This document shows, piece after piece, positions 2,689-39,256 of a stretch of 64,000 bases of DNA (position 1 is the first letter of the stretch; the number at the start of each line of letters is the position of its first letter). The notes beneath the pieces were generated by a model. The model saw only the letters and a program-made list of their open reading frames with translations, was not told the origin of the DNA and ran no database searches. Source of the DNA: a virus. Location of the stretch: IMG/VR virus record IMGVR_UViG_3300017991_000012, positions 1-64,000 of that record; one strand, written 5' to 3'. Made by a program: the position numbers and the translations under genes.

Positions 2689-3846
2689 TCATGCAGCTTG
2701 TGCGTTCGCGCAGCTGTCGCATTTCCTGCTTTCGCCCGTATGCTCGCCGCCGCAGATCGCGCAGTACTTCCGGCCCAGTTCCTTCGCCTGCTTCCTGCAG
2801 TCCTTGTCGCAGTGATCCTTGTGCCAGTTGTCCAGCTGCTTCCCGCACCACTGGCAGTATCGGATCGTCTCTCCCTTCTCCACATTATGCTTCTTCGGCC
2901 TGCTCTTCTCAACCTGTTTTTTCTCCACGGCCAGGACCTTCTTTGTCCGTCGTGCGCGGATGTCATCCATCGATGGCCATGTGTCCTTCACATTCACTGG
3001 CATGATCAGGTGCGACCACGGACCTTCCTTGATCCGCATCGGTGCGCCATCGGTCTTGATTTCCAGCACGGCCTCGACGTCGTAGATCTTCGATAGCGCT
3101 TCGCTCACGTACTTCCAGTTCAGCTTGACTGCCTTCGGTCTCGGCCTGCTCACCTCTGCCGTCAGGCCAATATCCACGTCCGTCTTCGGATCATCAGCGT
3201 CAAAGCTCGTGACGTACATCTTGCCCTTGTCGGCCTCGACGTTCACCGCATGCGTCTCGCTGCTGGCGATATTGCCCGCGACCTTCAGTGCCGCAATGGC
3301 CTCCTTCACCGCAAACTTGTAGCTGCCATCGTAGCTTTTCGGGACGATCGTCGTGTACCGTGGGAACTTGCCCTCTATGACGTCGATCATCTTCGGCTTG
3401 CCCTGATTGACTGTCACCGCTGCTCCGGTGCCGCTCACCTGTAGTTTGTGCTCGCACCTGCAGCTGTTGTCCGCTCCGCAGCTCTTGCACATGCCGTGCT
3501 CGTCCCAGCCTTCGTACTTTAGATGTTTCTCCATCTGTGCCAGGTCGGTGTCGATGTAGATCGCCACCATGTCGTCTTTCTTGACCTTGATCGACTTCAG
3601 CTGCTTGGCGTTACATACGACGTCCGCATGCGACACCTCGTCGCACTTGACGCTGTGCGGCTTGTGCACGGTGTACAGGCTCAGCCTGTGCGTGTCGGTC
3701 GCCACAAACTGCACCTTGCTCGGCGTGAGATGGATCAGAATACCCGCCAGCGGCCAACGACTTCTGCCCTTGCATGTCGCGAATTCGACTTTTTTTATCG
3801 CCTCCTTCCACACCTTTGCCTCCAACTCCACCATTGCCTTTGCCAT
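2689..3846 (-). CDS. dnaN: DNA polymerase III beta-clamp-like protein, N-terminally truncated, with Cys-rich insert and tail
   Basis: VATDTHRLS, IEGKFPRYTTIVP, LNWKYVSEAL and LIMPV match beta-clamp domain II/III motifs; start at MAKAMV behind GGAGG. Confidence 0.8.
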   Translation of the reverse strand: MAKAMVELEAKVWKEAIKKVEFATCKGRSRWPLAGILIHLTPSKVQFVATDTHRLSLYTVHKPHSVKCDEVSHADVVCNAKQLKSIKVKKDDMVAIYIDTDLAQMEKHLKYEGWDEHGMCKSCGADNSCRCEHKLQVSGTGAAVTVNQGKPKMIDVIEGKFPRYTTIVPKSYDGSYKFAVKEAIAALKVAGNIASSETHAVNVEADKGKMYVTSFDADDPKTDVDIGLTAEVSRPRPKAVKLNWKYVSEALSKIYDVEAVLEIKTDGAPMRIKEGPWSHLIMPVNVKDTWPSMDDIRARRTKKVLAVEKKQVEKSRPKKHNVEKGETIRYCQWCGKQLDNWHKDHCDKDCRKQAKELGRKYCAICGGEHTGESRKCDSCANAQAA

Positions 3847-3866
3847 GATCAGTCCTCCGCCTCCTC

Positions 3867-4475
3867 CTAGAACAACGTCCCGTTCTCGACGTAGAAGCCC
3901 CGCTGCTTCCACGACCAATGCTCGACTTCCAATCCTGCTTTCTCGAATCTCGCGCCAAGATCCTGCCACCGATGGCAATCTGGTGGCTCGCTCTCGCTGC
4001 ACATGATCGCCACCACGCCCTTGTCGCACATCTTCCTCACCTTCAGCACTCCTTCGAGCCTCTGAACCTCCGTCCACTCGTGCAGCCCTCCAAGCACTTT
4101 CCCCATCCACACGTACTCGATCTCGCCCAGCTCGATCGCATCCATCAGCGCTGGCCTGTTGAATTCCGGACGCCATCGGCTGTAGGGCCTGCTCCTCACA
4201 TCCACCAAGACCTTCACCTTGAACCTTTGCAGAATCCCCACCAGCTCTGCAAGCGGACGATTCCCGTACCCGATCGTCAGAATCTGCATCGTCTTCGTCC
4301 TTTCCTCATCGACCTCGATGCTCTCCAGATACTCCTCCGCACTCTCTCGCTCTCCCGGCGAGATTTCACGCTTCACTCTCAGTCTCGGTCCGTTCGACTT
4401 GCCTTCTTGCCAGGCTTTCCTGGCATGCATCGCTCTCTGCCATGCTTCGTATGGAAGCTTTATCTCGGTAGGCAT
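3867..4475 (-). CDS. DUF488 family protein with N-terminal extension
   Basis: TIGYGNR, VLVDVRSRPYSR..PEFNR, LGG, MCSE..P..CHR. Confidence 0.85.
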   Translation of the reverse strand: MPTEIKLPYEAWQRAMHARKAWQEGKSNGPRLRVKREISPGERESAEEYLESIEVDEERTKTMQILTIGYGNRPLAELVGILQRFKVKVLVDVRSRPYSRWRPEFNRPALMDAIELGEIEYVWMGKVLGGLHEWTEVQRLEGVLKVRKMCDKGVVAIMCSESEPPDCHRWQDLGARFEKAGLEVEHWSWKQRGFYVENGTLF

Positions 4476-7876: not shown

Positions 7877-8647
7877 TTACGTCTCGGCTTCGACTTTCGC
7901 TTTCACCGTCTCGTAGTATTTCTTGACGATTTCGACCATCCTGACCAGGATAGCGCTGATCGACCGGATGTCGTCTACCTTCTTCACCGTCCGCATGATC
8001 TCCTTGAACTTCGCGAAGTGCTGATACTCTACCACGTCCACGGTCCTGGCATCGCGGCTGATCAGCTCCAGCACCTGATTGTAGTCCTCCATTTGGTTCT
8101 GCAGGAACGTCATGTTCAGAACCTCGAATTCGATCGGCAAGCAGATCTCCTCGCTCCTGACGTGGCTGAACTCGAAATTGAGATCTGCCAGCACGCCGGT
8201 CGCGATCTTCGCCTCCACATCCTTGATGCTGTCGTAGATCTCCTTCAGAATCTGCTGATCGTCCTCGCCGTTCAGCGCGTTGTGCGCCAGCTGCTTGCTC
8301 TTGATCTGGTCTTCAGTCAGCTCCTCTGGCAGCACCATCACGTACAGCTCCGTCACGTTCGCCATCCTCGCAGCCCTTACCCTGTGGTGGCCGCTGATGA
8401 TCGGAAATTGCAGATTGCCCGCCGGGTTCAGTTGCTTTGTGCATAGCGGCATGCTCTCCAGCCTATTGTCCGTTGCGATATTCGCCTGCAGTCTTTTGAA
8501 CCGCTCAGCGCTCATCACCCTCGCATTGCGCTCCTGCTCTCGCGTCAGGTCTACGTGCACTTTCCAGATCTCAATTCCTGTATCGAGCGTTATCGCCAAC
8601 TGCGGATCTGGCCTGTCAACCGGCTTGCTCGGTTTCTGCTCTGGCAT
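7877..8647 (-). CDS. ParB/Srx-like N-terminal domain protein
   Basis: NARVM, IISGHHRVRAA, QLAHNAL.G.DD. Confidence 0.85.
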   Translation of the reverse strand: MPEQKPSKPVDRPDPQLAITLDTGIEIWKVHVDLTREQERNARVMSAERFKRLQANIATDNRLESMPLCTKQLNPAGNLQFPIISGHHRVRAARMANVTELYVMVLPEELTEDQIKSKQLAHNALNGEDDQQILKEIYDSIKDVEAKIATGVLADLNFEFSHVRSEEICLPIEFEVLNMTFLQNQMEDYNQVLELISRDARTVDVVEYQHFAKFKEIMRTVKKVDDIRSISAILVRMVEIVKKYYETVKAKVEAET

Positions 8648-10064
8648 TTTCCCTCTCCTGAAGCTCTCGCAGGAACAGCTGCACGCAGTCCGCATACGTC
8701 CTGTCGTAGAACTTGCACTCGTACATGATTTTGTACAGCCCGTTTTTCATCTTCTCGCGCTTGACCACGTCAAGCAGCCCGTTGTTCAGCTTCACCTTCC
8801 TGTACCTGCTCAGGCACGTCGTCCTGAAGCCCTGGATCTCGAAAATCCTGTTCGTCTTCAGCGCGTGCCGCATGATCTGACCTTTCAGGAACTCCTGGCA
8901 CGTTATGGCCATCATCAACAGCCGGTTCGCCGTCGGGTACTTCTTCATCGGCGCATTAAACCCATAGGTCTCGAACACGTACTCGCTTCCTTCCTCCATG
9001 CGGCGGAGGTGGCCTGTGTGCAAGCCAACGATTCCGAAGATCTGTCCGTCTATGAGCATCACGAAATAATGCTCTGCCAACGTCGCGCCCAGCTTGTGCG
9101 CCCACAGATCGCGGTAGTAGCTCGCAACGTTGTGGTCCACACCTTTGCCGATGAAACTCACCTTGCTGTCTGGCCGAATCTCGTAATCCTCCGAGATGAT
9201 CGGAAGTGGCAGTCTTTCGCTTTCCTTCCACGGCCTCTGCCATGCGATCCCGTCGAATTCCGGTGCGTCCTTCAGCACCTCCGGCTTGGTTATCATGCAG
9301 TAGCTGTAGCTCACCGGGCTGAACTGCAGGCCCCAGAACAAATCCTCTTCTGGCAGATCGTCCTTCAGGTTGTACCTCGCCCATATGTACGTCGCCGGAC
9401 TTTTCTTGCTCTCCAAGTATAGATTCCCGAACTCGTCGTCGAAATCCATCTCCGGCGCCGTGAAGCCCCACGTCAGCTCCGGCTCGAAGTCGAACATCTT
9501 GGTATAGCCTTTGCGATACGCAGGCGGATGTACCAGCACCAGCGTTCGTTCGTCGTACTCGGCCCTCACCACATCGCGGATGTCCGCCATCTCGTACTTC
9601 ATCCCGCCAAGTTTTTCCTTCTGTTCCTCAAGTTGCGTGCATAGGCTCGCCAGGCACATATCTCGCTTGTCTATAAAATACTGCCTGTACTGGGTGAGGT
9701 ACATCTTGTTTGATTTCAGTTGACGCACGCGCATCAGCCATAGCAGGTAGGCTGCTTTTGCTACTTCTCGCTTGAATTTCCTGTATGCTAACTCGTGCTC
9801 TTCGTCCAGCTTGATCGGAAGCTCGTCGATCGGCCTTCCTGCGTACCAGCACCCAAGCACGGCACTGAACACGCTGATGTCGCTGCACTCCGCCTGCTTC
9901 GGATCAAAGCCCGCCGCGATCGCACCTCGTACCAGACAGAACTGTCCCGCGCATGGCACAATCAACCTGTCGTACCTATGCTTGATCTTCGCCATCAGCG
10001 ACGTAAGCATATCTCGCTCAGGCTGAGGATTCACACCCTGGAATATCTTGCCCATCGGATTCAT
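8616..10064 (-). CDS. putative DNA adenine methyltransferase-like / DNA modification protein
   Basis: SAM-binding-like LIVPCAGQF and SDIS; HPPAY at the DPPY position; extra C-terminal domain; adjacent to ParB. Confidence 0.6.
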   Translation of the reverse strand: MNPMGKIFQGVNPQPERDMLTSLMAKIKHRYDRLIVPCAGQFCLVRGAIAAGFDPKQAECSDISVFSAVLGCWYAGRPIDELPIKLDEEHELAYRKFKREVAKAAYLLWLMRVRQLKSNKMYLTQYRQYFIDKRDMCLASLCTQLEEQKEKLGGMKYEMADIRDVVRAEYDERTLVLVHPPAYRKGYTKMFDFEPELTWGFTAPEMDFDDEFGNLYLESKKSPATYIWARYNLKDDLPEEDLFWGLQFSPVSYSYCMITKPEVLKDAPEFDGIAWQRPWKESERLPLPIISEDYEIRPDSKVSFIGKGVDHNVASYYRDLWAHKLGATLAEHYFVMLIDGQIFGIVGLHTGHLRRMEEGSEYVFETYGFNAPMKKYPTANRLLMMAITCQEFLKGQIMRHALKTNRIFEIQGFRTTCLSRYRKVKLNNGLLDVVKREKMKNGLYKIMYECKFYDRTYADCVQLFLRELQERENARAETEQAG

Positions 10065-10069
10065 AGGTT

Positions 10070-10144
10070 TGGTTGCGGGTGCAGGAGTCGAACCATGCGT
10101 CTTCCGGCGCAGAACCGGGTATTCTACCGTTGAACTATCCCGCA
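10070..10144 (-). tRNA. tRNA-Gln(CTG), atypical or degenerate
   Basis: TGCGGGA TA GTTC AACGGTA GAAT A CCCGG TTCTGCG CCGGA AGAC GCATGG TTCGACT CCTGC ACCCGCA A CCA; cloverleaf with encoded CCA. Confidence 0.8.
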
Positions 10145-10752
10145 GTATCCTTTCTTTTCTTCGCCCGTTCGTTCAGTTCAAGCAGTCGTTTGTCGAACTC
10201 TTCCTGCGTGACCTTCTTGTCTCTCTCAGCCTGCTCGTCCACGAACTTGATCGGAACCTTGTTCTCCACCTCCGGCACCAGGCCCACGGTCTTGTACAGC
10301 TCGCTCTTGAACCTCACGATGCCCGTGCGCGTCTGCAGAATCTGAATGCGCCTGCCGCTCATCTCCATCGACGCTTCGCCACCAAGCATCATCTGGTACT
10401 CGCGTCTGAGCTGCATGTCTATGCCTTCGAGTGCCAGTATCTGATCTTCAACCAGCTGCCCTGGATTGCCGATGTTCAGATACCTTCGCATCCACTCGTG
10501 GCGCCTGTGCCAGTCCCTCCTTACTGTGTTCGCCAGCCTCTGCAGCGTTTTCGAATACTCCTGCGCTTGTTCCCTCTCTTCTGGTGGATTTCCAAGTTCG
10601 ACCTTCGCCACCTGCAGCGCTGCATCAGTAGCTGTCAGGCCCATGCCTTCAACGAGACGTACCATTGCGAAACGCCGATTTCGCAGGTAGTCATCTTCTT
10701 CGTCTCTAAGGTCGTTTGGATCAAGCGGTTCGATTTCGGCAAGTTCGCCCAT
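10135..10752 (-). CDS. hypothetical helical protein, possible terminase small subunit
   Basis: Helical with a C-terminal beta-like tail; context next to ParB/MTase; no decisive motif. Confidence 0.35.
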   Translation of the reverse strand: MGELAEIEPLDPNDLRDEEDDYLRNRRFAMVRLVEGMGLTATDAALQVAKVELGNPPEEREQAQEYSKTLQRLANTVRRDWHRRHEWMRRYLNIGNPGQLVEDQILALEGIDMQLRREYQMMLGGEASMEMSGRRIQILQTRTGIVRFKSELYKTVGLVPEVENKVPIKFVDEQAERDKKVTQEEFDKRLLELNERAKKRKDTAG

Positions 10753-21611: not shown

Positions 21612-21806
21612 TCACAGATCCTCCACTCCGTCCTTGAACCCCATGAGCCACGCCTTCCGGAAACCCCAGCCGCCGGCCTTGCGCTTGTACTGGCAGTCAG
21701 CTGTTCCCTTGCCGGTCATCGCAGCATCGTATCCTTTCAGGTATCCAGCCTGGTGCGCCTTGCTCGTGATCTTGTCCACGCCCTTGAGAAACATGCGCCT
21801 GGTCAT
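21612..21806 (-). CDS. ribosome modulation factor (Rmf)-like protein
   Basis: KGYDAAMTGK....CQY...AWLMGF.DG resembles the Rmf pattern RGY.AG..G....CPY...W..GW. Confidence 0.65.
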   Translation of the reverse strand: MTRRMFLKGVDKITSKAHQAGYLKGYDAAMTGKGTADCQYKRKAGGWGFRKAWLMGFKDGVEDL

Positions 21807-22417
21807 TTCATGCGCCTATCAACGTCAGGCAGCTTGATCTTCTGAAAAGACGCCAGCCTGGACGCTATCCGCGGCTGCCATCGATGGATCCGGTCCAGTC
21901 CCATCTCGGTCGTCACGATCGTCTCGCGCATACGGTTTATCCGGTTACTGAGGATCAGGTAGAAGGTGCTTACCGAATAGTCGCTGCGCTTCTCGGCGCC
22001 GAGATCGTCCAGCAGCAGCAGCGGAACCTTTGAGTATCGATCGACCACCTGCATTTCGCTTGTCTCTGACTTGGCGTCGAACGACGACCGGATCCTTAGC
22101 ATCAACTCCGGCACCGAGATCCAAAGCCACTCCTGGTCCTTGATGCGATCGACGAGTATGGCTGTGGCCAGGTGCGTCTTTCCAATTCCAGTCGGCCCGC
22201 TCAAAAAGAATCCGCCCTTGTTCCAGTCCACCTTGATGCCGTCGAAATCAGCCAGCCTTGCCTGCCTGTACCTTTCCGGGATCCCTCTCAGGTCTGGGAT
22301 GGACTTCTTGATCTGGTTCGACGTTGGCGAACTTATCTGGACGTTCTGCAGCACTCTGCGTGCCAGCTCGTTGATTGGACGAGCCTCTTTCTCCGCTGTC
22401 ATTATCTGGACCTCCAT
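21803..22417 (-). CDS. DnaC/IstB-like helicase loader ATPase
   Basis: GIPERY, GPTGIGKT, LLLLDDLGAE, RIASRL. Confidence 0.9.
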   Translation of the reverse strand: MEVQIMTAEKEARPINELARRVLQNVQISSPTSNQIKKSIPDLRGIPERYRQARLADFDGIKVDWNKGGFFLSGPTGIGKTHLATAILVDRIKDQEWLWISVPELMLRIRSSFDAKSETSEMQVVDRYSKVPLLLLDDLGAEKRSDYSVSTFYLILSNRINRMRETIVTTEMGLDRIHRWQPRIASRLASFQKIKLPDVDRRMK

Positions 22418-23075
22418 TCTTCATGTACCGCTGCAGCGTGCTATTCATCCAAGACATCGGGTTGTTTGGTTTGCGCCTCTCAGTGTTTGCCAGCGCCTCG
22501 TAGATCCAGTCTTCTGGATACATCTTCAGCCAGTTTCTCAGGTTCACCAGGCAGTCGCCAAGTACTCTGAAAGCATGCTGCTGTAGATCTTTCGATATAT
22601 GAATTTGAGACTCCGACTCGTCCTCTCCCTCCTCTCCTTCCACTCCTTTCCCTCCCTCCCTCTTAGGCGCTACCTCAGGTTCTTGCGGTATACACGCGGT
22701 ATCCTCCAAGTGCCTATCAGATGGATACTGGATGCGCACCCATCCAACTTCTTCGCTGGCGCAAACTTCCAGAGTATCGACTATCGTTTTCTCTGAAAAC
22801 CTTGTCATCATCGCGATCTCTTCTGGTGTCCACGCGGTACCATCTGGGTATCCGTCATGTGTCATCCAGCCGTCCCTCGGCTGCTCTTGACGAGAACACA
22901 GGAGAACCATCGCGCACCAAGCACCGTACATAGCTTCACCGCTTGGCTTCGACAGCAGCTTGCAGTAGCCAAGACCATTCTGCTTGTTTGGAACGCTACA
23001 CCAACTCTTCCTTGCGATCGTCCGAGACTTCGCATTCTCAAAGTGCTTACCCCAGTTGACGATCTGATATTTCAT
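22248..23075 (-). CDS. phage replication initiator
   Basis: N-terminal wHTH-like region, low-complexity linker, DnaD-like C-terminus; directly upstream of the loader. Confidence 0.7.
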   Translation of the reverse strand: MKYQIVNWGKHFENAKSRTIARKSWCSVPNKQNGLGYCKLLSKPSGEAMYGAWCAMVLLCSRQEQPRDGWMTHDGYPDGTAWTPEEIAMMTRFSEKTIVDTLEVCASEEVGWVRIQYPSDRHLEDTACIPQEPEVAPKREGGKGVEGEEGEDESESQIHISKDLQQHAFRVLGDCLVNLRNWLKMYPEDWIYEALANTERRKPNNPMSWMNSTLQRYMKNGGPDNDSGERGSSNQRAGTQSAAERPDKFANVEPDQEVHPRPERDPGKVQAGKAG

Positions 23076-23560
23076 TTTTGTTCCTCGACTTCCATGATGC
23101 GCTGCCCGTGGTCCCTGCAGCTGTCGGTCCATTCTCTTGCGACATCCATCATCATGCTTTTCATCGCGCTCATCTGATCAAGGTGACTCCGTATGGAAAA
23201 GAGAAGAGGAACCCATCGATCCAAGTCACAAGATCCTCGCGCCCCCACAATATCATCCTTGACGAAAAACGCGAATTCATGCATGGCTTCGTCGTTGAAA
23301 ATGCATCCGAGTGCTTTCATCACATATTGCAGGTCATCGTCACCGTGATGTTTGCCGTGGCACTGGCTACACAGACAAACCAGATCGTTCACCGTTTCCG
23401 TTCCCCATTCCTTTGGGTAACGGCGATGATGAACGTGCTTTGCCTTCCCTCCACACAGCACACACTCGCCGTTATCCATCGCCAACCGTTGCGCCCTGAT
23501 CGTCTTCCACTTGTCGCTCTGCAGGTACTTCTGATAAGCGGCTTTTCCGTTCTTGGACAT
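23072..23560 (-). CDS. HNH endonuclease
   Basis: YL.S..W...R...D...CVLCG, HVHHRRY, LVCLCSQCHGKHH. Confidence 0.85.
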   Translation of the reverse strand: MSKNGKAAYQKYLQSDKWKTIRAQRLAMDNGECVLCGGKAKHVHHRRYPKEWGTETVNDLVCLCSQCHGKHHGDDDLQYVMKALGCIFNDEAMHEFAFFVKDDIVGARGSCDLDRWVPLLFSIRSHLDQMSAMKSMMMDVAREWTDSCRDHGQRIMEVEEQK

Positions 23561-23573
23561 GCCGATCTCCGCC

Positions 23574-23680
23574 AAAAGGCCCTCCCCAGCTGGACGGACC
23601 AACAGAGGATGCTGGTAGGAAGCTGGGTCAGGCCAGGAATAAGTCCGGTTGAATCCTTCCTCTGTTTTTTCCGTCCAGGT
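23574..23680 (-). promoter_or_regulatory. structured 5' leader (long inverted repeat, possible attenuator)
   Basis: CTGGACGGA..AACAGAGGA (23590-23609) is inverted at 23658-23678. Confidence 0.55.
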
Positions 23681-26915: not shown

Positions 26916-27278
26916 TCATTTCTCCTCGTCTGATTGCCAACTCGTTCCGCCTATGCAGATCGCTCCAGGATCTTCTCGCCATTCTACGATGGTTTGATTG
27001 AATACATTCTCGTCGCGTTCAGTCCACGTTCCTTTGGCCTTTTCGTATGCGCGAATCAGCCTGTACACCTCCAGGTAGTACGGTTCGTCACAGGCCACGA
27101 CAATGAACGGCTTGCCTTTTTTCAGCAGCTTTCCTGCCCTGCTATCAAGAAGGAACTCCATCTCTGCCACTCGCTTCTGTTCCTCGCGGCGAATCTGTGC
27201 TTGGATCTGCCGCTCCTCGCGGCGAATCTGTGCTTGGATCTGCCGCGCCTTTTGTGCCTTCGTCAGCTTCTTTGTCAT
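26916..27278 (-). CDS. hypothetical protein with 11-aa duplication
   Basis: RQIQAQIRREE present twice. Confidence 0.6.
   Translation of the reverse strand: MTKKLTKAQKARQIQAQIRREERQIQAQIRREEQKRVAEMEFLLDSRAGKLLKKGKPFIVVACDEPYYLEVYRLIRAYEKAKGTWTERDENVFNQTIVEWREDPGAICIGGTSWQSDEEK
27181..27246. repeat. perfect 33-bp tandem duplication
   Basis: TCCTCGCGGCGAATCTGTGCTTGGATCTGCCGC x2. Confidence 0.95.
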
Positions 27279-37666: not shown

Positions 37667-38041
37667 CTATGCGTTGTCAATCGCTCGCGCCAGCCCAATA
37701 ACCTCTTGTTCAATCTCGTAGTGCCTGATCTTCTCGGCGCCCTTGCCAACCACGTTCTTGCACGAAAAGCAGTATGTTTCTCCCTCAATGCACTGTTGCA
37801 CCCAATGCGCTATCTCGTGTGCGATCGTTAGGTACGACGCTCCAATCTTCACCCTGATGATGTGCTCTGCGAGCAGGTTGTCCTTCGTGAAGCCCTTGGC
37901 TATGTATTCGCCTTCTGCTCCGCGCACGCCACCGACCTCGATGGTTGGGTCGTTCTCGTCCGCTATGCCATAGAACCTTCTTGCGCGTTCGGCCCAGGCC
38001 TCTATTTTGAAGGCTTTGATTTCCTTTTTTCCACTCTTCAT
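37667..38041 (-). CDS. HExxH zincin-like protein, first gene after the array
   Basis: TIAHEIAHWVQ. Confidence 0.7.
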   Translation of the reverse strand: MKSGKKEIKAFKIEAWAERARRFYGIADENDPTIEVGGVRGAEGEYIAKGFTKDNLLAEHIIRVKIGASYLTIAHEIAHWVQQCIEGETYCFSCKNVVGKGAEKIRHYEIEQEVIGLARAIDNA

Positions 38042-38068
38042 GTCGCTCTCCTGAGTAGTGAACCAAGA

Positions 38069-38106
38069 CAATAGTAGTATACACCACAGGCCACGTTTGT
38101 CAAGTG
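38069..38106 (-). promoter_or_regulatory. early promoter with GTCTTGG leader and upstream A-tracts
   Basis: CACTTGACA-16-TATACT-6-GTCTTGGT. Confidence 0.85.
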
Positions 38107-38153
38107 GATTTGTATTTATTTTGCTGTTTTTTCGTCGAGTTATTTTTGTGGAT

Positions 38154-38819
38154 TTTTGCCTGGAAAACTAATCGCTCTGAGGTGCGCTGGTTTTGCCTGC
38201 AAGTACTCGGTCTCGAAAGCGTACAGCTGTTGCCTGCAAAAGCAGCGTGTCGGATCGTGCGTGGTTTTGCCTGCGAAGCGGTGACCTCGCGTCGCGCCAT
38301 GTTTTTTCTGGAAAAGCTGCGTCTCGTTTCGAATTGGATTTTGCCTGGGAAGTGCTCGTCTCCTTTCGTCGTGAGTTTTCCCTGCAAAATCTATCGCTCG
38401 GATCGTATCACGTTTTACCTGGGAAAGTTTGGTCTCGAATCGCGACGGTTTTTGCCTGAAAATCGGATCGCTCGCTTCGTCACAGGTTTTGCCTGCAAAG
38501 CGTGTTCGTCTGTGCGTCACGTGTTTTTCCTGAAAAAGCTATCACTCGTTTCGGCGCAGGTTTTTCCTGGAAAAGTTCGACGTCAGATCGTGACGTTTTT
38601 TGCCTGAAAAAGCTGCCGCTCCATGCGTCGCAGTTTTTGCCTGAAAAAGCCGTGCGTCGAAGCACGTCAGGTTTTGCCTGGAAATTGTCCTGCTCGCTTC
38701 GTCACAGGTTTTGCAGCCTAGATCAGGCGCTCGGCGGGAGTCGTGTTTTGCCTGCGAAAGCTGCGCGTCACAGACGCGCCAGGTTTGCCTGCGAAGTGAC
38801 GTGCTCTCAGAGCATGGTG
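38154..38819. repeat. 18-unit degenerate array with exact 37-bp period
   Basis: TTTTGCCTGNRAA core at 38154+37n (n=0-17); invariant TC at unit positions 23-24. Confidence 0.95.
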
Positions 38820-38828
38820 CTGTTGCAG

Positions 38829-38870
38829 AATAAAAATGGAGGCCTATCGCCGGGCGAACGATAGGCCTCC
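38829..38870 (-). terminator. terminator ending the late operon
   Basis: GGAGGCCTATCG/CGATAGGCCTCC 12-bp stem followed by a T-rich tail. Confidence 0.8.
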
Positions 38871-38905: not shown

Positions 38906-39256
38906 TTACGGATCGCCCGGCGGATCCTCTTCCAGGACCTTGTTCTTGTTCGCTCTCGCCAGTCGATACAGCTTGCGGAAGGCAGCCGGGCTTAGGACGT
39001 AGAACTTGTCCAGGTCCTTCAGCTGCACCTCGGCCTGGTTGTAGTCGAAGATCTTGCCCTCACGGATCTGGTACGGCACCATGTCTGCCGGCACCACGTT
39101 GTTCGCATGCGCCGGATTTCTGAACGGATTGCCGCAGCCATAAAAACCGAACAGCAGCGCCACGATCATCAATGCAGTCAGCATTTTGATGACAATGCCA
39201 TCGGCAAGCCTGTTGCGGTTCTCATTCATCTGCTCACCTACTTTCTCTTCGGGCAT
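38906..39256 (-). CDS. lipoprotein, possible o-spanin-like
   Basis: Hydrophobic signal ending FYGC; at the end of the late operon; start uncertain. Confidence 0.5.
   Translation of the reverse strand: MPEEKVGEQMNENRNRLADGIVIKMLTALMIVALLFGFYGCGNPFRNPAHANNVVPADMVPYQIREGKIFDYNQAEVQLKDLDKFYVLSPAAFRKLYRLARANKNKVLEEDPPGDP

Follow-up and report, generated by a model that had tools for sequence, protein, structure and literature searches.

A non-coding array of 18 direct 37-bp units (38154..38819, 666 bp) in the genome of an uncultured phage is, judged from its sequence, a real and selected element that acts at the DNA level and is made up of phased predicted binding sites. We tentatively read this array as an iteron-type replication origin, at a confidence somewhat short of even, in which a phage protein would bind the units and replication would begin beside them. 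The main rivals of this reading are a packaging or terminus element and a regulatory block, while the neutral, centromere and guide-RNA readings are minor.

Genome context of the array

The phage comes from marine sediment and its 80-kb genome is represented by virus record IMGVR_UViG_3300017991_000012 (80,107 bp). The window, that is, the whole stretch of DNA presented for analysis, is the first 64 kb of that record. Since the two ends of the record share a 123-bp overlap, the assembly is circular. Gene prediction over the whole 80-kb record with a self-trained codon model gave ~102 genes, every one on the minus strand, and the array region was the sole large non-coding stretch of the genome. 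Read in the direction of transcription, the gene order starts at a sigma-70-type promoter (38076-38103) and proceeds through early genes that include RadC, DUF932, a PD-(D/E)XK exonuclease, a DnaC-like loader and a RuvC-like resolvase. These are followed by a ParB_N-like protein and a Dam-like/GNAT enzyme, then a beta-clamp-like protein and then TerL (828-2270). The portal, a Mu F/SPP1 gp7-like protein, a protease and the major head protein are encoded across the record ends, after which the late part continues with large glycan and tail proteins, a Laminin_G tail-fibre-like protein, three small ORFs and the terminator at 38838-38870. The family nearest to TerL was phrog_38, which is Mu-like; the best TerL relative among 5.8 billion proteins had 67% identity, and the lineage had no match among GenBank phages.

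The two genes next to the array encode small proteins. The first early gene (37667..38071, minus strand) encodes 134 aa without any family match; its Atlas model resembled an SprT-like/zincin fold (TM 0.6-0.66), and the protein is too small to be a Nop domain. The last late gene (38906..39256, minus strand) encodes 116 aa; an N-terminal hydrophobic segment precedes a conserved Cys in a lipobox-like context (YGCGNP). This protein is probably of the lysis or spanin type and lipoprotein-like, and it had a single distant homologue among 1.8 billion representative proteins.

The DnaC/IstB-like helicase loader is encoded at 21803..22417 (minus strand), and a 294-aa ORF lies directly upstream of it (22248..23132, minus strand). 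The 294-aa protein was likened to replisome organizers by protein-language-model features alone; profile searches gave no initiator family match for it, and its single-sequence structure model had a pLDDT of 37 and was unusable. We consider it a candidate origin-binding replisome organizer. A search inside and beside its gene revealed no iteron cluster. A 495-aa protein with a match to the central domain of the DNA polymerase III beta subunit is encoded at 2689-4176 (minus strand), just upstream of TerL and downstream of one of the CACTTGACAAA promoters described below. No polymerase was found among ~60 proteins scanned, and the phage encodes no HU/IHF gene; by eye, the units of the array do not match the IHF consensus. 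A small terminase subunit was not recognisable in the genome, and the ORF at 10135-10752, put forward as its candidate in the first-pass annotation, had no family match. Elsewhere, the HNH region of a 176-aa protein (23072-23602, minus strand) matched the NCBIfam IscB model at 33 bits against a cut-off of 175, a domain-level likeness only. We also noted a tandem repeat of 33 bp x 2.1 at 27181-27250 (97% match), at about which an independent Logan assembly of the same phage breaks rather than at the array.

Anatomy of the 37-bp units

When the sequence was laid out at 37 bp, the 18 units began at 38154+37n in perfect register with zero indels, as had been described earlier. The column profile of the units was TTTTGCCTGcAAAAgcTgtggCTCGgaTCGtcaCaGG. 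Positions 1-13 form the core, TTTTGCCTGnRAA, which is followed by secondary conserved islands, namely (C/G)TC at 22-24, CG at 29-30, C34 and G37, while ~15 columns are near-random. The sequence TTTTGCCTG was exact in 10 of the 18 units and had at most one mismatch in 16; RAA at positions 11-13 was also found in 16 units, and (C/G)TC at 22-24 in all 18. The earlier counts of TC at 23-24 (18/18) and CG at 29-30 (12/18) were exact. Five columns (T3, T4, A12, T23 and C24) held the same base in every unit and, with these invariant columns included, about 9-11 columns were identical in at least 17 of the 18 units. The remaining islands were less strict, with counts out of 18 of 13 for C22, 13 for C29, 14 for G30, 14 for C34 and 13 for G37.

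The 80-kb genome contained 10 copies of TTTTGCCTG, all within the array, on one strand and in register, against ~0.6 expected in 160 kb (both strands), which excludes chance. An nhmmer profile built from the units recovered 18 of 18 (E<=0.17) and found nothing better than E=0.9 elsewhere in the genome. TRF listed the array only at periods of 74 and 148 because the units are too diverged to score at 37. The ORFs that cross the array scored negative for coding and 37 is not a multiple of 3, in agreement with its description as non-coding. A putative decayed 19th unit, TTTTGCTG, was found at 38119-38126 with a core one base short, and the array is degenerate at both edges.

A spacing of 37 bp corresponds to ~3.5 helical turns, so that adjacent sites lie on opposite faces of the helix. 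Curvature modelled with our own script was locally ~2x that of the flanks with a normal end-to-end distance; the modelled profile, which is to be taken as qualitative only, is consistent with bends on alternating faces. Strict spacing combined with loose sequence had been taken to suggest a protein scaffold. The phased scaffold is indeed what these features point to, while the binding of a protein to it is what we infer.

The sequence TTTGC-CT-GCAAA within the core was a perfect inverted repeat in just 2 of the 18 units, and a KorB/ParB-like palindromic core was therefore dropped. In the loosest columns the plus strand of the array had G at 0.34 and C at 0.22, compared with C at 0.33 and G at 0.23 for the plus strand of the genome. 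The loosest columns are thus G-rich on a strand that is C-rich genome-wide, and the strand bias of the array is inverted relative to every gene.

Constraint on the array and its occurrence elsewhere

Conservation was strongly uneven among the columns (chi-square 111, permutation P<5e-5). The 15 loosest columns had a pairwise identity of 0.30, compared with 0.265 expected from composition, and the array as a whole carried ~217 mismatches to the consensus and 0 indels. The loosest columns are thus near saturation while the spacing is constant, which we read as selection on both motif and phase; the uneven columns and zero indels together fit purifying selection on motif and spacing. Some units were more alike than others: units 8 and 14 agreed at 19 of 24 positions of the variable part, and units 6 and 10 as well as 7 and 11 at 16 of 24. 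Higher-order structure at 74/148 bp was weak in both TRF and lag analysis. The duplicate pairs and the 74/148-bp order suggest that the array grew by duplication and later diverged without indels. Divergence by ~217 substitutions without an indel in turn suggests that the core motif and the phase were conserved and the linkers were free to change.

The array was 100% identical in contigs of three further metagenome runs from separate studies, two of sediment and one of seawater. The phage therefore recurs, while these copies add no comparative depth. Two independent assemblies continued unbroken through the array. DNA searches with the array and its flanks gave no match in 50,697 phage records or in 72,556 plasmids (PLSDB), and motif-pair scans of IMG/VR, JGI metagenomes and GTDB genomes returned only chance matches or unrelated perfect 37-bp repeats; these collections yielded no syntenic relative either. 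The first early protein, the last late protein, an 821-aa tail protein and TerL had no homologues in IMG/VR, metagenomes or genomes; the sole homologues were on Logan contigs, P0002 (54%, 21 kb) and P0008 (39%, 12.8 kb).

Flanking terminator, promoter and AT-rich stretch

The array had been placed between the terminator of the late operon and the first early promoter, and both elements were confirmed. The intrinsic terminator (38838-38870, minus strand) is strong and has a 14-bp stem, a 5-nt loop and a ATTTTTATT tail, and it has no T-run in the plus-strand sense. On the other side, the sigma-70-type promoter TTGACA-N16-TATACT occupies 38076-38103 on the minus strand. Its extended -35 element, CACTTGACAAA, occurred as nine exact copies in 4527-38106, all on the minus strand, compared with 0.8 expected by chance. 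These nine promoters define the early/middle transcription units, and the copy at 38096-38106, the first of the nine, adjoins the array.

Between this promoter and the array lies a 47-bp AT-rich stretch (38107..38153), which touches unit 0 and includes the possible decayed unit. Among all 40-bp windows of the genome, the one starting at 38108 was the richest in AT (78% AT, genome mean 44%), and among all 100-bp windows the least stable was 38056-38155. The stretch overlaps DNA upstream of the promoter. We propose that it may function as a DNA-unwinding element.

Strand composition changes at the array

We determined the strand composition around the genome. Detrended cumulative GC skew was lowest at 37.8 kb and highest at 74.0 kb. 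For GC3 skew, the best two-domain split separated 37,464-74,255 from the rest (LLR 44.2, permutation P=0.0025), with a coding-strand skew of 0.05 inside this region and 0.20 in the rest, giving domains of 36.8 and 43.2 kb even though all genes are on one strand. Independently, AT3 skew gave 38,906-74,255 (P=0.05). The plus strand was relatively G-richer to the right of the array, and the polarity of the skew is that expected of an origin at the array with a terminus ~36 kb away on an 80-kb circle. Although late, the head and terminase genes (74.3-80 and 0-4.3 kb) carried the 'early' skew (0.17-0.18), and a split by position therefore performed better than a split into early and late genes (LLR 44.2 vs 30.0). 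A sawtooth model with one discontinuity at 37-40 kb was nearly as good as the two-domain model (LLR 34-39), which keeps a genome-end (linear) or unidirectional-replication reading alive. Alternatively, the skew domains could result from the tail and glycan modules having a mosaic ancestry. The second breakpoint shared by GC3 and AT3, 74,255, lies beyond the window in the gap between the gene for the major head protein and the one that follows, and is a candidate terminus or module boundary.

The array as a possible replication origin

Among the four functions listed in the first-pass annotation, only the origin gained independent support. Our reading of the array as an origin draws on three independent features, namely the AT-rich flank, the breaks in strand composition and the gene set with its type of replication module. 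In this model the non-coding array would work as DNA, presenting 18 same-orientation sites, each with the core TTTTGCCTGnRAA and a CTC...CG island, and would serve as the theta-replication origin of the phage. The iterons would be coated by an initiator or replisome organizer of the phage. Melting of the 47-bp AT-rich stretch beside them would follow, and the DnaC-like loader would bring the host helicase, upon which forks would depart bidirectionally.

Several features expected of an origin were present. In the array, direct repeats that share one orientation and a conserved core are clustered, and they occur nowhere else in the genome; repeats that are direct, on one strand and at a single locus are iteron-like and unlike a dispersed operator. 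The adjacent AT-rich stretch and a strand-composition switch with the polarity of an origin were present as well. The gene set comprises the DnaC-like loader with the organizer-like ORF upstream, the beta-clamp-like protein, the RuvC-like resolvase and the PD-(D/E)XK exonuclease, and these annotations fit a phage that would recruit the host replisome through an organizer and a loader. It also speaks for the array that the search in and beside the gene of the putative organizer gave no iteron cluster. Other features were absent. No initiator was picked out by any profile, no cluster of DnaA boxes was found at the array, and phasing on a single face (about 11 or 22 bp) was lacking, the period being exactly 37 bp. 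Known iterons measure 17-22 bp and are phased on a single helix face, at ~11 or 22 bp. A period of 37 bp, alternating faces and 18 copies are atypical for iterons.

Initiator-bound repeats beside an AT-rich element are found at SPP1 oriL and oriR, which are bound by gp38, at lambda ori, which is bound by O, and at the oriV iterons of plasmids. The array differs from these iteron origins in having 18 copies rather than 3-9 and a period of 37 bp (3.5 turns) rather than ~19-23 bp. Furthermore, its unit is bipartite with near-random linkers, and it has no sequence similarity to any known origin. [quoted passage not shown] Transcription of the SPP1 genome normally uses a single strand, and oriR is situated in an intergenic region that ranks among its longest (PMC6316719). 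Like the array, oriR is thus found in a long gap at a distance from the replication genes, and the coding strand of SPP1 is the heavy strand (PMC6316719). SPP1 also has a loader, a resolvase and an exonuclease (PMC6316719), and both the replication module and the head module of the present phage resemble those of SPP1.

Packaging and regulatory alternatives

An element for packaging, genome ends or DNA entry is an unlikely but serious alternative. The array would then lie at or beside the physical ends or the concatemer junction of a genome that is read one way. Its role there would be to bind terminase or proteins for ejection, or to make DNA entry pause ahead of the first host promoter. Comparable elements are the short-repeat arrays beside the T7 terminal repeat and the injection-stop region of T5. 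The position of the array exactly at the junction of late end and early start agrees with this proposal, and so does the sawtooth skew model, which places its one discontinuity at 37-40 kb and is almost the equal of the two-domain split. In T7, the SRL and SRR short-repeat arrays flank the terminal repeat, and the array resembles them as non-coding repeats that come after the late genes and before the first promoters for host RNA polymerase in a one-direction genome; the terminase and head genes here are, however, not T7-like. Instead, the Mu-like TerL (phrog_38), together with the portal and the Mu F/SPP1 gp7-like head protein, points to packaging by the headful mechanism. In this mechanism pac is normally near the terminase genes, and here those genes are ~35 kb from the array. 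Moreover, both independent assemblies pass through the array, the Logan contig breaks instead at the 33-bp repeat near 27.2 kb, and the 123-bp end repeat of the record is at window position 1, away from the array. The Mu/SPP1-like terminase and head module together with the continuous assemblies make fixed ends at the array less likely.

We regard as similarly unlikely a regulatory or insulating block, in which a DNA-binding protein of the phage or the host would coat the 666 bp and either shield the first early promoter from late read-through on circular or concatemeric DNA, or switch that promoter on and off. The array has a terminator on one side and, on the same strand, a consensus promoter on the other, as such a block would, and terminator-like hairpins were present in units 9, 11, 12, 13, 16 and 17, on the late-operon side. 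Against this, the other eight CACTTGACAAA promoters lack such an array, two thirds of the units have no hairpin and folding was no better than that of shuffled sequences (mean z -0.17). A regulatory block also leaves the skew breakpoints unexplained.

Neutral minisatellite and centromere alternatives

It is quite improbable that the array is a neutral or decaying minisatellite without function. The weak 74/148-bp order with a few clearly duplicated units (8/14, 6/10 and 7/11), the degenerate edges on both sides and the failure to find a homologous array in any of the databases searched are what decay might leave. Neutral decay does not agree with a pattern in which about 9-11 columns hold one base in no fewer than 17 of the 18 units and ~15 are random-like. 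Nor does it agree with 0 indels where 10-20 would be expected for ~217 substitutions at an assumed indel:substitution ratio of 1:10 to 1:20, or with an array that was 100% identical in the three further metagenome runs.

The possibility of a plasmid-type centromere, in which a sopC-like array bound by the ParB-like protein of the phage would segregate a plasmid prophage, appears very slight. The layout recalls F sopC, which consists of 12 direct 43-bp repeats, each with a SopB site (PMC3177203). Both are long, perfectly phased arrays of direct repeats; each sopC unit has one ParB-family binding motif (PMC3177203), and each unit here has a predicted site. A 272-aa protein with a ParB_N-like domain and a GHHRVRA motif (phrog_7405) is indeed encoded at 7877-8695 (minus strand), with a Pfam match below the cut-off. 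The sopC units differ in being near-identical, in containing a 16-bp inverted repeat and in lying beside sopAB. In contrast, the linkers here are saturated, the core is asymmetric, with an inverted repeat in only 2 of 18 units, and a partition NTPase is absent: no ParA (PF13614, PF01656), ParM (PF06406) or tubulin/TubZ (PF00091) was found in the genome. The genome also shows no integrase or other sign of a temperate lifestyle. The ParB_N-like gene, 30 kb from the array, lies directly downstream of the gene for a 482-aa protein that combines a phage Dam-like with a phage GNAT-like domain (both genes within 7877-10064, minus strand), and from their sequences the two look like a DNA-modification pair rather than a partition protein. 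The proposal of a centromere for the ParB protein was thus not borne out.

Guide-RNA alternatives

The remote prospect of a new dual-segment guide or recognition array, working as RNA or DNA, would treat the near-random segments of fixed length as programmable information; its effector would be unrelated to Nop/Tas or Cas and would be among the orphan proteins of the phage. Slimmer still is the chance of a TIGR-like dual-spacer array, or another processed RNA array serving an unrecognised effector, in which each unit would be divided into a 13-nt 'edge' block, an 8-nt spacer, a 9-nt 'loop' block and a 7-nt spacer. TIGR arrays have two alternating 8-12-nt repeats with box D (UG) at the start and box C (CCA) at the end, spacers of ~9 nt, an adjacent Nop-domain Tas, 36-nt RNAs and usually a terminator at the end, and TIGR systems are known in phages (PMC12045711; bioRxiv 10.64898/2026.09.09.750476). 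The unit of 37 is close to the 36-nt tigRNA unit (PMC12045711), conserved and near-random blocks alternate, two of each per unit, the near-random ones being short and constant in length, and a phage would be a known kind of carrier. The block sizes are 13/8/9/7 nt compared with 8-12/9/8-12/9 in TIGR, alike in shape and at or beyond the TIGR ranges in size.

The two defining features of a TIGR system, the Nop-domain Tas and box C/D, were tested and both were absent, and the TIGR alternative was rejected. No Nop domain (PF01798) was found in a six-frame translation of the 80-kb genome at E<=1, and no Cas-like match among ~60 proteins, in agreement with the earlier remark that neither effector was visible. 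The unexplained proteins that were tested had no Tas-like match in Pfam, PHROGs, NCBIfam or PDB sequences; given the wide sequence divergence of Tas, this absence is strong rather than absolute evidence. The genes that neighbor the array encode just 63-134 aa, without a family match. As for box C (CCA) and box D (UG), the pattern CCA-N8-12-TG occurred in the 18 units twice on the plus strand and four times on the minus strand, never as two conserved columns per unit, and no conserved column triplet was CCA on either strand. No promoter-like site faces the array on either strand, and the minus-strand terminator precedes the array rather than following it. Hairpins were found in 6 of the 18 units with a per-unit folding no better than that of shuffles, fixed-register covariation was absent from the units and no Rfam family matched the array. 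Finally, the variable segments had no excess of matches in the phage's own genome and no targets in 50,697 phage records. A CRISPR array was rejected since the conserved block is only 13 nt, where repeats should be 23-55 nt with spacers of comparable length, and ~60 proteins gave no Cas-like match. The array is a useful negative example for finders of TIGR and CRISPR arrays: a unit of ~36 nt, dual blocks and an exact period are insufficient to call a guide array without box C/D and a Tas gene.

Implications of an origin at the array

The array is of interest chiefly because of its geometry and the orphan lineage in which it occurs. If it is an origin, it would mark the start of replication in a nearly unsampled phage lineage. 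It would also be an unusual one, with 18 iterons at a 3.5-turn spacing, an arrangement that predicts a zigzag nucleoprotein rather than wrapping on a single face.
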